From IMG/VR virus record IMGVR_UViG_3300031595_000166, positions 32,001-96,000 of that record: a DNA stretch of 64,000 nucleotides, one strand, 5' to 3'. The position numbers and the translations under genes were made by a program. This document shows, piece by piece, positions 1,047 through 64,000 of the stretch; the stretch's first letter is position 1; every line of letters starts with the position of its first letter. The notes beneath the pieces were generated by a model that saw nothing but the letters and a program-made list of their open reading frames with translations, was not told the origin of the DNA and did no database searches. The DNA comes from a virus.

Positions 1047-1414
1047 TATTTGACCAATTCCTCTCGTATCATAACTCCCAATTCATAAGCGAACTCTTCT
1101 CGATCATATTCGGATTTGGGATATCCATCGAAGCCTTTTTGAAAAGATCTAACCCAATTTGTATTCGTATCTAATAATTTTTCAATTGAATAACCGCGTC
1201 CGCTTGCTAAATGTTTTGGTATTTTTTCTTGATCTGCAAGCAACACACACGCTAATGCACAACAAGTTTGATCTTTTTTTGGTGCCCAGTGTTCTTTGCC
1301 TTTTGTAGATTTCCATTCAATTCCCCAAGATTGAATACCAAGTTTTATACCCTTTGTTGTAATGGTCTTTATAGCATTACGAATAATTTGTTCTCGTTCC
1401 CCATCAGTTAGCAT
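1046..1414 (-). CDS. hypothetical protein
   Basis: 122-aa ORF with overlapping start/stop. Confidence 0.65.
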   Translation of the reverse strand: MLTDGEREQIIRNAIKTITTKGIKLGIQSWGIEWKSTKGKEHWAPKKDQTCCALACVLLADQEKIPKHLASGRGYSIEKLLDTNTNWVRSFQKGFDGYPKSEYDREEFAYELGVMIREELVK

Positions 1415-1698
1415 AATATCAATAACTTTTCTAATTGTTTCGCTGTTTTGATATCAAACAATTTATAACCATCAAAAACTTTGATTAGCCTTTCCCTACG
1501 ATCAGGTGATGGAAACATATGCATTATGAATGTATGTTCTTGGCTCCATTCGATTGCATAAGGCTGAATATTTTTCATCGCATAACTAAATTTGGTTTCG
1601 TCTTCTTCGGTAAAATGTAATATATCACAATCATTACAATATTTATGGTCTAATTCTCCGCTACACCTAATGCAATGGATATTGGCTGGATGTTTCAT
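1408..1698 (-). CDS. small Zn-ribbon protein, C-terminal tag family A
   Basis: CxxC..CxxC; ends KLFDIKTAKQLEKLLILC; paralog of 1695..2048. Confidence 0.7.
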   Translation of the reverse strand: MKHPANIHCIRCSGELDHKYCNDCDILHFTEEDETKFSYAMKNIQPYAIEWSQEHTFIMHMFPSPDRRERLIKVFDGYKLFDIKTAKQLEKLLILC

Positions 1699-2048
1699 AT
1701 CAATATCAATAACTTTTCTAACTGCTCTTCTGTTCTAATATCGAATAACTTCCAACCATCAAGTTCGGCAATAGTACCATCCATATATTGACCTGATGTT
1801 TTTGATGTTTGGATCCATTCTTCTTTTAGAATAGTTGTTATTTTCTTATTATTAGGAATATCATATTCCCATCTAATTAGATATTTCAGGCTTATGGTTC
1901 GTTCCGCGCATCCCCAGCTTTTGTTATAAAACTTCGGATCGCCATAATATGTAATGGCGCAATCATCACATTTACTATTATATATTTGAGTTGCTTCCCG
2001 AGTTGTAGATTTACACGATATACAAAAATAGTTTTTATTCGTTGTCAT
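1695..2048 (-). CDS. small Zn-ribbon protein, C-terminal tag family A
   Basis: CxxC..CxxC; ends KLFDIRTEEQLEKLLILI. Confidence 0.7.
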   Translation of the reverse strand: MTTNKNYFCISCKSTTREATQIYNSKCDDCAITYYGDPKFYNKSWGCAERTISLKYLIRWEYDIPNNKKITTILKEEWIQTSKTSGQYMDGTIAELDGWKLFDIRTEEQLEKLLILI

Positions 2049-2230
2049 CTTCGTCCGTATCTTTATCTACCTCTTCAAGCAACTCTCTTTGCTCATTCTT
2101 TTGACCACCACGAGGTGTGTTTTTAGATTTCATCGGCGCCATACCAGCCACACGAGAACGCGCAGATATAACATTGGAATTGCGAGGAACGGATTTAGTT
2201 TTCTTCTTTTTGTTTTTAGACATTGCGAGC

Positions 2231-2479
2231 CTATGTTAGTATTAGATACTTTTCGATTTCATCGAGATATTTTGCATGGTCTTCATAATCTAATTTCCAA
2301 GATTTGAAAATTACTTGGAGCGGAAGGGTTTTATTTTCATTATCCCACATGAATGCTTTCACTAATGTTTTAGGAACATTCATATTACGATTTTCAATAA
2401 ATCTTGTTATCTCTACCCATGTAGCAACGCCCCCTAATTTATACATATATTCTTTTAGATCATCTTCATCTTTGGACAT
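2231..2479 (-). CDS. small protein, C-terminal tag family B (start moved to MSKDEDD)
   Basis: RNMNVPKTL motif; ends AKYLDEIEKYLILT; the ORF-track start (2554) lies inside a promoter. Confidence 0.6.
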   Translation of the reverse strand: MSKDEDDLKEYMYKLGGVATWVEITRFIENRNMNVPKTLVKAFMWDNENKTLPLQVIFKSWKLDYEDHAKYLDEIEKYLILT

Positions 2480-2543
2480 TTGTATCACCGTGTAGGGAAA
2501 ACTGCTAGGAACGGCTACCGCTTTGGCGCCGTTCCCTGCTCTA

Positions 2544-2572
2544 ACAATAGCCATCGATTACCGCTTTGTCAA
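2544..2572 (-). promoter_or_regulatory. sigma70-type promoter
   Basis: TTGACA-17nt-TATTGT. Confidence 0.7.
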
Positions 2573-3106
2573 GCCCATAATAGTTGAGCAAGGTTTCGCT
2601 AAATAATGTCTGGTTGTGTATTGTTTGTTTATGACAAGATTGTTCTACAATCATCTGGCTTTGTTCATGTGATGAGCACGTCTGGCGAGGTTGCATCTCT
2701 GCGAGCACATATCACTGTGCGTTTTCGTGTTTGGAATGCCGTCGCATTATTTTGTTGTCGAGTTCAATGCCCTTTGAGTTTATCGCTCTTGGGTTATCAT
2801 TGCCAGCACACGATCGGAGATACATTACATATCAAGCGAGCGCGCCCAACTTTTGCTGGAAAATCTAGGTTTTACTTTCAAGTTTCCATACATCGTTTTG
2901 TAAATCAACGATCATATCATTTAAGTGCTTAATGCAATCCTTTATGTTTTCGTGTTCGCCTTCTTTGAATTCTGGCTTTGGATATTCATATCTTCCTTCT
3001 TTATTTTTTCCAATAATGTAAGACTTTATAATCCCGCCACAAAATACACACTTAATACCAGACTCTGTTTCTTCGGCTTCTAGTTTAGTTTTATTTTTTG
3101 TTTTAC

Positions 3107-62161: not shown

Positions 62162-63133
62162 ATGGCAACAAGATCTAAAAAATATCAATACATTTTCGCA
62201 GAAGTTTCAGTAAAAGATAGTCTATTAGATAGCAATATAAGCAATATTGCTGGCACGCCATTCAACTTGGCTCAAAAGATATATGCAGAAGAGTCAAGAC
62301 TGTCTAATTACCTTGATAAGGTATTAGAAAAAGGGTTCTCGGCAATTCAACAAGATACCGCACACCTATTGAAACAAGGATTAACAACAATAGAGATAGC
62401 AAAATTACGCGGAGTGAATGTTAGTTCCGTAATCAAGTGCATCAATGGTCAAGGCAAGAAGGGCGGGGGATTGAAGAAGCGTTCTATTACGTTGATTAAA
62501 GAGAATAAATCTACGCTAATAATCTTCATCAATAAGATCAAGAATCTATTACCAGAATCATATGATGACTTGAATCTACCAACATTTAGGCTTGTATCCA
62601 GCGTATTGATGGCGGACGATGATGCACAAAATTGCATTGGTATACGACAATCAGGTCGTCAAACAAGGAACAAAATGATTAAACTAAGTTGGACAGCCAG
62701 CACATCACAAGTTTCGGGATACAATGTATACCGCGACCACAATACAACGCCACTAAACGGTAATGTTCCAGTAGCAGGAACAACATTCACTGACAATTCT
62801 GCATTACCCGGTAAGGTCTATAACTACGAGGTAAAAGCAGTATTCAATGGCGTAGAATCACAAGCAATATCGCTATCGTCATCCGATACACATGCCAAAG
62901 CATTTGCTCTTGGCAAGATTATTCAGGATGCAACAGGTCATTTTCATGAGGCAACGGTTGCTGGAACAACGGGGGCAACGCTTCCCAAGTTCGCAACTGC
63001 ATTGGGCTCGACAACCAAAGATGGTTCAGTCGTCTGGACAGTAAAATCAAGCGGTGCTACTCCAATAGCATTACTAAAATCAGGACAAAGCCCCGCGGCA
63101 CCAAGCAATCTTTTGATTGTTGCTCGTAGCTAA
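62162..63133 (+). CDS. HTH-like N-terminus fused to fibronectin type III domain and small beta module
   Basis: EIAKLRGVNVSSV HTH; KLSWTAS..VSGYNVYR...TFTD...YNYEVKAV FN3; DGSVVWT. Confidence 0.7.
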   Translation: MATRSKKYQYIFAEVSVKDSLLDSNISNIAGTPFNLAQKIYAEESRLSNYLDKVLEKGFSAIQQDTAHLLKQGLTTIEIAKLRGVNVSSVIKCINGQGKKGGGLKKRSITLIKENKSTLIIFINKIKNLLPESYDDLNLPTFRLVSSVLMADDDAQNCIGIRQSGRQTRNKMIKLSWTASTSQVSGYNVYRDHNTTPLNGNVPVAGTTFTDNSALPGKVYNYEVKAVFNGVESQAISLSSSDTHAKAFALGKIIQDATGHFHEATVAGTTGATLPKFATALGSTTKDGSVVWTVKSSGATPIALLKSGQSPAAPSNLLIVARS

Positions 63134-63162
63134 TCAATTTTATATAAATTGACTCATACTTT

Positions 63163-63198
63163 CCCCGCCCGAGGCGACTTGTTGGCGGGGATTTTTTT
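63163..63198 (+). terminator. intrinsic terminator
   Basis: CCCCGCC/GGCGGGG stem followed by ATTTTTTT. Confidence 0.75.
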
Positions 63199-63206
63199 GT
63201 AGGTTA

Positions 63207-63413
63207 TTATAGGAGGAGAAGTAGTTTCTCGATTTTTTCTTCGGTTAATGGAATTAGTTGATCATATATTCTTAGTAAGATTTTTGTTATCTCTGGGTTG
63301 CAAACGAAGGTTATGTTTTTCAGGAGGTTGTATACAACCATATATTTGCCATGTGTATGATAGCAACATGCTGAATTTAGTTTTGTTTCGGAATTACAGA
63401 TAGGGCAATTCAT
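63207..63413 (-). CDS. small CPIC protein, C-terminal tag family F (start MNCPIC)
   Basis: Ends PLTEEKIEKLLLLL. Confidence 0.75.
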   Translation of the reverse strand: MNCPICNSETKLNSACCYHTHGKYMVVYNLLKNITFVCNPEITKILLRIYDQLIPLTEEKIEKLLLLL

Positions 63414-63685
63414 TTTAGTAATAGTATTGTGTTGATACGATCCTCGGTTAGCCGAAACCATTTATTACGTAGAGTTATAAGAAGATGAATACTAATTTTG
63501 CCATTTGATATAAATGGATCTTTCACAGAATCATCATACACGGATATTCTATTTGAAACAGAATCGATTCTTTGATAGACAATATGATATTTTCCTATTC
63601 TATGAGAATGCCACCATACTCTTCCTTGTTGGGCAGTTCCAATAATTAATTGATCACATTCAGGACAGGGGATAGGATTATTCAT
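63410..63685 (-). CDS. small protein, C-terminal tag family F
   Basis: CPEC, H.IGKY.IVY; ends LTEDRINTILLLK. Confidence 0.75.
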   Translation of the reverse strand: MNNPIPCPECDQLIIGTAQQGRVWWHSHRIGKYHIVYQRIDSVSNRISVYDDSVKDPFISNGKISIHLLITLRNKWFRLTEDRINTILLLK

Positions 63686-63888
63686 TTTAGCAATAGCATA
63701 ATTTCAATTCGATCTTCATCAAGAAAAACATGCCCTTTACAATTTAAAATTGATTCACCCCATGGATTATTCGTATAAACATAAGTTCCATGTAGGAAAA
63801 TATTCTCATCGCGATATGAAACCTCATATTTACCAAGTGTATGCCAATGTGAGGCATAAATTATTTCATTGCAGATGGGGCAGTTCAT
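63682..63888 (-). CDS. small CPIC protein, C-terminal tag family F
   Basis: Ends LDEDRIEIMLLLK. Confidence 0.75.
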   Translation of the reverse strand: MNCPICNEIIYASHWHTLGKYEVSYRDENIFLHGTYVYTNNPWGESILNCKGHVFLDEDRIEIMLLLK

Positions 63889-64000
63889 TGTAGCAATAAC
63901 AATTTCTCTATTCGTTCTTCATCTAATACAACAAAACCATTCAATGTCATCTTAGTTTCCCAACCATAACTATCATCCTTGCCAGTGTATTTTAATTGTA
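63885..64000 (-). CDS. partial family F protein (3' end only)
   Basis: Not in ORF track; reads ...TLNGFVVLDEERIEKLLLLQ-stop. Confidence 0.7.
   Translation of the reverse strand, partial: QLKYTGKDDSYGWETKMTLNGFVVLDEERIEKLLLLQ

Follow-up and report, generated by a model that had tools for sequence, protein, structure and literature searches.

Why would small proteins of unrelated families, encoded close together in one phage, all end in the same short, leucine-rich tail? This question is raised by a 64,000-nucleotide stretch of DNA, hereafter called the window, which corresponds to bases 32001-96000 of the 157,262-bp IMG/VR record IMGVR_UViG_3300031595_000166 (38% GC). The record is a piece of an uncultured huge phage; its completeness is ~32% according to CheckV, IMG/VR labels it a provirus, and the minus strand holds nearly all of its genes. 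An initial annotation of the window had described a C-terminal tag on about 35 small proteins, and had explained it as a phage-wide address by which these proteins dock to one hub, or as a common degron. The number holds for the window, where we found 32-35 carriers, but not for the record as a whole, in which ~94 of the ~352 open reading frames (ORFs) carry the tag, i.e., about a quarter of the genes on this fragment. For comparison, we used a 406-kb relative that is 95% complete and syntenic with the record (IMGVR_UViG_3300044797_000098, hereafter G001), and a complete 428-kb genome with terminal repeats (G002), which is more distant from the record than G001. Further relatives are several metagenome contigs, and cultured phages gave no match, either in a megablast search with two 5-kb stretches or in a tblastn search with members of the tagged families B and F.

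The tag is confined to C-termini

The tag has the consensus [ED]-x-[ILV]-[EDQ]-K-[LYF]-L-[LIMV]-L-x-stop, and the residue before its first acidic position is usually D, T or S, a helix N-cap. Counted back from the stop, with the last residue as -1, the Leu at -2 is invariant in 90 carriers, K is present at -6 in 62 of them, and Q occupies -7 in 15. The last residue is variable (I in 25, K in 21, Q in 12, L in 10 and M in 7 of the 90 carriers), and K or Q is terminal in 33. The tag is real, shared and C-terminal. All coordinates given in the initial annotation were checked: the two members of family A, seven of B, five of C, seven HREDGPA (MORN-like) proteins and eight members of F that had been listed before, as well as the singletons at window positions 32318 and 33274, all carry the tail. 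That the recognizable enzymes of the window lack it was confirmed as well.

When the ends of all 352 ORFs were compared with other positions, a strict tail pattern matched 22.7% of the C-termini. The same pattern matched 0.29% of internal positions (n = 45,780) and 1.2% of non-gene ORFs (n = 1,373), and several of these non-gene ORFs proved to be real genes overlooked by ORF calling. This corresponds to an enrichment at C-termini of ~80-fold over internal positions. Subsequently, we tested a seven-residue core, [ILVM][EDQN][KRQ][LYFM]L[LIVM]L, in a six-frame translation. In the translated coding strand this core occurs 53 times, and in 53 out of 53 cases it lies exactly one residue ahead of a stop and never inside a protein, whereas the opposite strand contains two occurrences, neither of which adjoins a stop. 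When the tail was written as a degenerate DNA pattern, 53 matches were likewise found on the coding strand of the record, none on the other strand, and three in a reversed control. Literature searches retrieved no description of the tag, which we regard as a shared terminal tag with a consensus of its own.

Selection acts on the peptide

It had been argued from differing Leu codons that the tail is conserved as a protein and not as a DNA repeat, and the codon data bear this out. The invariant Leu at -2 is encoded by all six Leu codons (CTA 32, TTG 25, TTA 15, CTG 12, CTC 4, and CTT 2), the nucleotide information is concentrated at codon positions 1 and 2 with almost none at third positions, and no conservation was found past the stop in the 90 carriers. 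At tail positions with the same residue, the codon is identical in 34.4% of the comparisons between families, compared to 37.1% expected from pooled codon use, and in 42.9% of those within families, compared to 40.2% expected. Codon identity is therefore close to expectation, which means that synonymous sites are saturated and that the tail is neither a repeat element nor the product of recent DNA transfer. Because of the six Leu codons, the randomized synonymous sites, and the unconserved 3' flank, the signal must be sought in the protein and not in the DNA. Within families F, B and C, the tails are 59-72% identical compared to 25-30% for the protein bodies, and for tails of different families identity is 22-63%, compared to 0-14% for a control segment (29% in one pair, M-G). 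The tag peptide is maintained by purifying selection at the protein level.

Two observations could be taken as pointing to a nucleic-acid signal. Many carriers overlap the start of the next gene (ATGA), and the last codon ends in A in 64 of the 90 carriers (ATA, AAA, CAA, CTA, GTA or TTA), with TGA as the stop codon in 49. An A-ending last codon followed by TGA produces the ATGA stop-start overlap, and this partly sets the identity of the last residue. However, overlap with the start of the next gene is as common in tagged (41%) as in untagged genes (38%), so the tail is no by-product of translational coupling. The imprint at the DNA level is limited to the free last residue only.

Tagged proteins belong to unrelated families

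Families were assigned with hidden Markov models from which the last 12 residues had been removed. This resulted in 37 carriers in family F, 20 in M, 13 in B, 5 in C, 3 in E, 2 each in A, A2 and G, 1 in D, and 8 orphans. Family F consists of CPxC Zn-ribbon proteins and family M of MORN-like HREDGPA repeat proteins. A scan of ten carriers against Pfam and PHROGs gave a weak DUF6745 match on the MORN-like repeats and nothing else. With the tails removed, hhalign probabilities were below 7% for all 45 family pairs. With the tails kept, the best alignment comprised the last 9-11 residues alone, except for A and F, which align over their full length with a probability of 92%, provided that the tail is retained. 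Families A and F may thus be distant kin, judging from their sequences, and the protein at 32318 is a divergent Zn-ribbon that is F-like at E=6e-4. Since there is no profile link without the tails, and since the AlphaFold folds of B and F differ (see below), the carriers do not share one homologous fold of which the last helix is simply conserved. The carriers span at least three structurally unrelated protein families, in line with the claim of unrelated families in the initial annotation.

The tagged genes of the window, all on the minus strand, are listed below, together with the doubtful cases and the untagged member of family M.

1408-1698, minus strand: family A, tail QLEKLLILC
1695-2048, minus strand: family A, tail QLEKLLILI; A aligns to F only with the tail
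2231-2554, minus strand: family B, tail EIEKYLILT
3828-4112, minus strand: family B, representative used for AlphaFold (last helix 81-91 of 94), tail EIDKYLLLL
6634-6906, 6915-7208, 7218-7499, 7508-7774 and 7786-8049, minus strand: family C, array of five genes, tail CERHxxLLILQ
6915-7208, minus strand: the gene of this array with a weaker tail, RLVLQ
9812-10204, minus strand: weak, uncertain case, CDVCLLLK, in which LLLK comes after a Cys knuckle
11100-11405, minus strand: family B, tail EVDKYLLLI
13111-13398, 13398-13694, 13695-13970 and 13975-14277, minus strand: family B, array of four genes, tails E[IL]EKY[LM]ML[ILV], syntenic in G001
15262 and 15570: family D, doubtful; the former has LLL three residues from its end, the latter has no tag
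15785-16018, minus strand: family D, doubtful carrier and loose fit, WFDGLLVLV, without the E-K pair
26712-27122, 27119-27622 and 27619-28236, minus strand: family M, three genes, tail IYGKENLQKFLLLI
29199-29753, minus strand: family M, tail NNLSKLLLLV
30266-30676, minus strand: family M, tail ESLQKFLLLI
32318-32641, minus strand: divergent, F-like Zn-ribbon, tail EDLEKYLLLL
33274-33531, minus strand: orphan of 85 residues, tail EKLKKLLVLM
35156-35545, minus strand: untagged member of family M, internal control, ends in the alternative module EVEIDGKKYKLTAV
40013-40453, minus strand: family M, tail ENLQKYLILI
45570-46094, minus strand: family M, tail DNLTKYLILL
53851-54120, minus strand: weak, uncertain case, IDQIKLLM
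55028-55234, minus strand: family F, representative used for AlphaFold, tail helix 58-67 of 68
55231-55464, minus strand: family F, tail ERIEKLLLLK
56249-56721, minus strand: family F, two genes, tails QRIEILLMLQ and QRIETMLLLK
63207-63461, 63410-63685, 63682-63888 and 63885 onward past the window end, minus strand: family F, four genes, tails EKIEKLLLLL, DRINTILLLK, DRIEIMLLLK and ERIEKLLLLQ

Family D had been included before as a weaker example. Of its three genes, only the one at 15785 fits, and loosely so, and the orthologues in the relative do not keep the tail. The cases at 9812 and 53851, which had likewise been marked as weaker, stay uncertain. Of note, a 258-residue protein with an FGE-sulfatase-like domain is encoded inside the F array (55461-56237, minus strand), and in a related huge-phage contig an FGE-sulfatase gene is located at most ~10 kb from a gene for an M50 protease, a protein that will be discussed below. 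The window also contains an untagged paralogous family of ~140 residues with a terminal Cys pair (…C.SCK…), encoded at 43457-44330 and 46885-47750 (minus strand), and at 38545-38946.

The tag is modular and restricted to a narrow lineage

Family M provides an internal control for the tag. Twenty of its members are tagged and four, including the one at 35156 that had been singled out as untagged, end instead in ...EVEIDGKKYKLTAV. This type of ending also closes MORN proteins of other phages. Since MORN paralogues occur with alternative tails, the tag is modular. Other phages contributed 254 MORN-type ORFs from 76 loci (IMG/VR loci L007-L082). None of these ORFs has an LLL tail, and their recurrent endings are xIDGxxYxL (22 ORFs), LGYxIxV (12), ...LKALW (25) and ...ASILD (15), as well as …LKIKK. 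From these sequences, a layout of variable repeats followed by a lineage-specific constant ending seems to be general for MORN-type proteins.

Homologues of B and F were found only in close relatives. The tail motif was kept in every metagenome homologue inspected (23 for B and 8 for F), even at 25-30% identity, and three of these homologues have one to six extra residues past the motif. In related contigs the tail is also present on additional families that do not occur in this record, and variants such as EKLLPLL and KLKVLL were found there. The coding strand of the record contains 53 pattern matches in 157 kb (0.34 per kb), compared to 28 in 406 kb for G001 (0.07 per kb) and approximately background in the 428 kb of G002, and there are no matches on the opposite strand of the record or of G001. 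The sole clear case in G002 is a 113-residue Zn-ribbon protein ending in QIEKYLILI. A scan of IMG/VR for the B-type tail pattern yielded the relative already known and, apart from that, just two chance matches out of frame. The code had been thought of as phage-wide, but the tag is a trait of a narrow lineage, and not of phages generally or of the wider huge-phage clade.

The tail is predicted to be a terminal helix

Representatives of families B and F were modeled with AlphaFold2 using family alignments, and secondary structure was assigned with DSSP. The B model has three strands followed by four helices, with a predicted local distance difference test score (pLDDT) of 92.9, and in the F model a Zn-ribbon is combined with a meander of four strands and a single helix (pLDDT 92.2). 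In both models the tail is predicted to be α-helical, over 10-11 residues at the end of the chain (58-67 of 68 in F, and 81-91 of 94 in B), and it follows directly upon the preceding strand or helix without a linker. The 10-residue blocks entering and covering the tail helix have pLDDT values of 85-96, and the last four residues of B have a value of 74. These models do not show a loose peptide, and they agree poorly with a classical degron or with an encapsulation-type signal attached by a flexible linker. No clear PDB relative of B or F was found by Foldseek against the PDB or by VIA-align wide (best Z scores 5.5 and 4.3). On a helical wheel, positions -8, -5, -4 and -1 would fall on one face, and E at -10, E, D or Q at -7 and K at -6 on the opposite side, with L at -3 among them and L at -2 at the edge. 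The strands of F contain alternating conserved hydrophobic residues that could pack against the tail.

A tentative docking role

What, then, could the tag be for? We tentatively propose, with a probability of roughly 40%, that it serves as an unvarying handle by which small, variable binding proteins are connected to one common partner. The module would consist of a helix N-cap (D, T or S), the sequence E-x-[ILV]-[EDQ]-K-[LYF]-L-[LIMV]-L, one free residue and the stop, and it would close small domains of differing fold: the Zn-ribbon β-meander of F, the MORN-like repeats of M, the strand-plus-four-helix domain of B, and the domains of approximately six smaller families and the orphans. The helix face formed by -8, -5, -4 and -1 would pack on the carrier's own domain, and E at -10, E, D or Q at -7, K at -6, and L at -3 and -2, together with the chain end, would be presented to one reader protein of either phage or host. 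A large, fast-turnover set of small proteins with variable surfaces could thereby dock on the same partner, as adaptors on a hub, and docking might result in delivery, sequestration or degradation of the bound target. An outside reader is suggested because proteins of unrelated fold have kept polar residues at -10, -7 and -6, because the register relative to the stop is fixed, and because Pro at -3 is tolerated in a relative. In its full form the proposal would be that uncultured huge phages of one lineage (~400-490 kb) mark proteins by a C-terminal address code, in which at least 90 small proteins from at least nine families are read by one receptor that recognizes the E/E/K/L/L face and the chain end. 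This extended version is somewhat more speculative.

Several points weigh against a docking role. No reader or hub protein was found in this record (~32% complete), G001 or G002, and ~90 proteins sharing one partner would require an abundant hub. The tail is confidently modeled as an integral helix without a linker and may therefore be purely structural, and the B model has it as helix four of a bundle, the whole of which can be aligned to other bundles. The E...EK pattern with its N-cap is also expected of a short helix that stabilizes itself by an i to i+4 salt bridge and by interaction with the helix dipole. In addition, the assignment of buried and exposed faces is based on simple helical geometry and not on model coordinates, and the gene set of 352 ORFs was obtained with a simple ORF caller of our own.

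Search for a partner

The single hub that had been postulated was not encountered. Hsp70, ClpP, PDZ_2 and the bacterial microcompartment (BMC) shell domain (PF00936) had no match in the three phage records, of which the present one is only ~32% complete, and neither had the phiKZ chimallin, although the latter was a single-sequence search and is not conclusive. A tubulin/TubZ-like protein and two J-domain proteins are encoded in each of G001 and G002 (in G001 at 104.4 kb, and at 164.6 and 223.7 kb, respectively). Import into a phage nucleus was considered in view of the tubulin in the relatives, and found no support in this chimallin search.

Outside the window, at record positions 17747-25507, are five tandem paralogues of 450-550 residues with an invariant GAWDIATMSMRGIxSCQxW, which are also found in loci L083 and L088-L090. 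These had no Pfam, PHROG or PDB match. As hub candidates they were rejected, since they have no informative match and are kept in both large relatives, including the tag-poor G002.

A further candidate was the M50 site-2 protease encoded at 16853-17818 of the window (minus strand), which contains HESSH and LDG motifs and ~5 transmembrane or hydrophobic segments, and is apparently intact. The gene lies ~2.6 kb from the B array, and this synteny is kept in G001. Both tag-rich genomes have the gene and the complete, tag-poor G002 lacks it, a comparison of three genomes. However, homologues with 45-50% identity are found in many other huge-phage contigs and also in Saccharimonadales, and in the 20-kb locus L096, from another huge phage with an M50 gene, no ORF ends in the tag. 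The protease was therefore demoted as a hub, its homologues being common in other huge phages, one locus of which was read without finding tags nearby. Complex prediction for the phage M50 protein with family B gave a score of 0.29 against a mark of 0.32, which speaks neither for nor against binding.

Alternative explanations

The best alternative to a common partner is that the tail is purely structural, i.e., a self-stabilizing capping helix that closes the cores of small domains, and that was inherited or grafted long ago in this lineage. This deserves to be taken seriously, although on balance we consider it unlikely. The AlphaFold models of B and F, with pLDDT values above 90, in which the last helix is packed in the domain without a linker, are what this explanation predicts, as is the place of the B tail in a four-helix bundle. 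The N-cap and the E(i)/K(i+4) pair are a classic helix-stabilizing design, and the alternating conserved hydrophobic residues in the strands of F could provide the surface on which the tail packs. However, unrelated folds would not need the same sequence for this, and core helices normally drift at 25% identity, whereas the tail is two to three times better conserved than the body. Moreover, internal packing leaves unexplained why the stop follows one residue past the Leu at -2 in 53 out of 53 cases, and the Pro at -3 in a family of a relative (EKLLPLL) would be odd for the end of a packed helix.

It is doubtful that the tag is a common degron or chaperone tag, in which the non-polar end (K-LLLL-x) would direct the proteins to a host AAA+ protease or Hsp70 for timed turnover or handling. 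In E. coli, proteins are destabilized by non-polar residues at their C-terminus, and the segments preferred by DnaK have a Leu-rich core of 4-5 hydrophobic residues with basic flanks and are accessible in extended form. The K(-6)-LLLL-K(-1) segment of family F fits such a DnaK site by sequence, but it is modeled as a packed helix with acidic flanks. Both large relatives encode two J-domain proteins and no Hsp70, so they probably recruit the host DnaK, yet the nearly tag-free G002 has the J-domain genes as well, and ClpP is found in neither of these relatives. Furthermore, the tail is modeled as a folded helix rather than a disordered end, and the terminal K or Q in 33 of the 90 carriers is unlike ssrA-type or Tsp-type ends.

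Slightly more doubtful is an association of the tails with each other, whereby the Leu-rich helices would assemble the carriers into homo-oligomers, mixed oligomers or a condensate. The final helical turn is hydrophobic on all sides (-5 to -2), and encapsulation peptides of metabolosomes, which are of similar character, have been shown to drive condensation (PMC12339742). On the other hand, ten residues are short for a stable coiled coil, and there is no obvious use in an indiscriminate mixing of ~90 different proteins.

It is very unlikely that the tail is a membrane-facing pro-peptide that is cut by the phage M50 protease, in the way that SpoIVFB cuts pro-sigma-K. The apparently intact protease gene, its distance of ~2.6 kb from the B array, its conserved synteny, and its presence in the tag-rich genomes but not in G002 would fit such processing. 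However, this co-occurrence is based on three genomes, homologues are widespread among other huge phages and occur without tags at the L096 locus, and a membrane helix would need a hydrophobic stretch far longer than the 4-5 residues of the tail.

Finally, a nucleic-acid signal (promoter, ribosome-binding or coupling site, or recombination site), or chance in AT-rich ORFs, is effectively refuted by the near-empty third codon positions and the lack of conservation past the stop, by synonymous identity at or below expectation between families, by the equal overlap of tagged and untagged genes, and by the strand and reversed controls.

Comparison with known terminal modules

In overall layout, the tagged proteins resemble the ANK/PRANC proteins of poxviruses, which form large, fast-evolving paralogous families, and in which variable ankyrin repeats are followed by a short constant, F-box-like C-terminal module that connects them to one host machine. 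The MORN-like family shares this arrangement of variable repeats and constant tail. There is no relation in sequence or fold, however; the tail measures 10-14 residues here compared to ~30 or more in the poxvirus proteins, the host is a bacterium without an SCF ligase, and the same tail is also found on folds without repeats.

The clamp-binding tails of T4 gp43, gp33 and gp55, the SspB XB tail that binds the ClpX N-domain, and the PTS1 signal -SKL are likewise carried by unrelated proteins and read by a hub, and in these cases, too, the distance to the chain end matters. Their consensus differs from the one described here, and they are extended or disordered, in contrast to a tail that is modeled as a packed helix. 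The bacterial β-clamp-binding motif is QL[SD]LF or QLxLxL. This motif was rejected as an explanation, since Q is present at -7 in only 15 of the 90 carriers, the next residue is K in 62 of the 90 rather than L, and a terminal aromatic residue is absent. A PDZ-type ligand was rejected as well, given the K or Q at the end of 33 of the 90 proteins and the absence of a PDZ_2 domain from the three phage records. An ssrA-type or tail-specific-protease degron was discarded in view of the variable last residue and the modeled helix.

The T4 capsid-targeting sequence of internal proteins is also a phage-specific tag that brings unrelated proteins to one destination. It is located at the N-terminus, from which the prohead protease removes it, whereas the tag described here is C-terminal in all cases and the N-termini are not common to the families, and a T4-type targeting sequence was therefore rejected. 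The tag further resembles the encapsulation peptides of BMC (PduP/PduD, EutC and CcmN) and the cargo-loading peptides of encapsulins, where a short terminal helix on unrelated proteins is the address for one protein shell (PMC4594438). BMC encapsulation peptides are terminal amphipathic helices of ~15-20 residues, attached through a poorly conserved flexible linker (PMC4594438). In contrast to these peptides, the sequences of which are poorly conserved, the helix found here has 10-11 residues, is strongly conserved, lacks a linker and has a fixed register to the stop, and the residues just ahead of it (the N-cap D, T or S, and E) are conserved too. By its length and the missing flexible linker it does not fit an encapsulation peptide of this type, although a shell might be supplied by the host. 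The encapsulation peptide of the carboxysome protein CcmN may resemble the IYGKE... segment of family M.

Neighboring genes

The recognizable genes of the window encode a glutamyl-tRNA synthetase (GluRS; 4114-5538, minus strand), NAMPT and an NMNAT-Nudix fusion, which form an NAD salvage pair (51263-53732, minus strand), a T4-type RNA ligase, a DNA methylase, an aminotransferase, a GIY-YIG endonuclease, the M50 site-2 protease, and glycosyltransferases. NAMPT had matches of a generic kind only. Elsewhere in the record, beyond the window, are genes for an NAD-dependent DNA ligase and a malate synthase, the latter with a single match of 51%, in an Acidobacteriota metagenome-assembled genome.

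Implications

Huge phages carry hundreds of small genes without known function, which are usually studied singly. If one tail ties ~90 proteins to a single partner, then the identity of this partner would at once place a quarter of the fragment's genes in a pathway. It would also show how huge phages organize their fast-evolving accessory proteins, which may be anti-defense or host-takeover binders. With a single receptor, diversifying Zn-ribbon, MORN and helical binders would be wired to one effector machine, as a bacterial-virus counterpart of the adaptor families of eukaryotic viruses. The tail is compact, portable and strongly selected, and occurs on at least three predicted folds, and knowledge of its reader could make it useful as a tag for docking. 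The more modest reading, that of a reusable capping helix, still bears on the origin of new small phage proteins.

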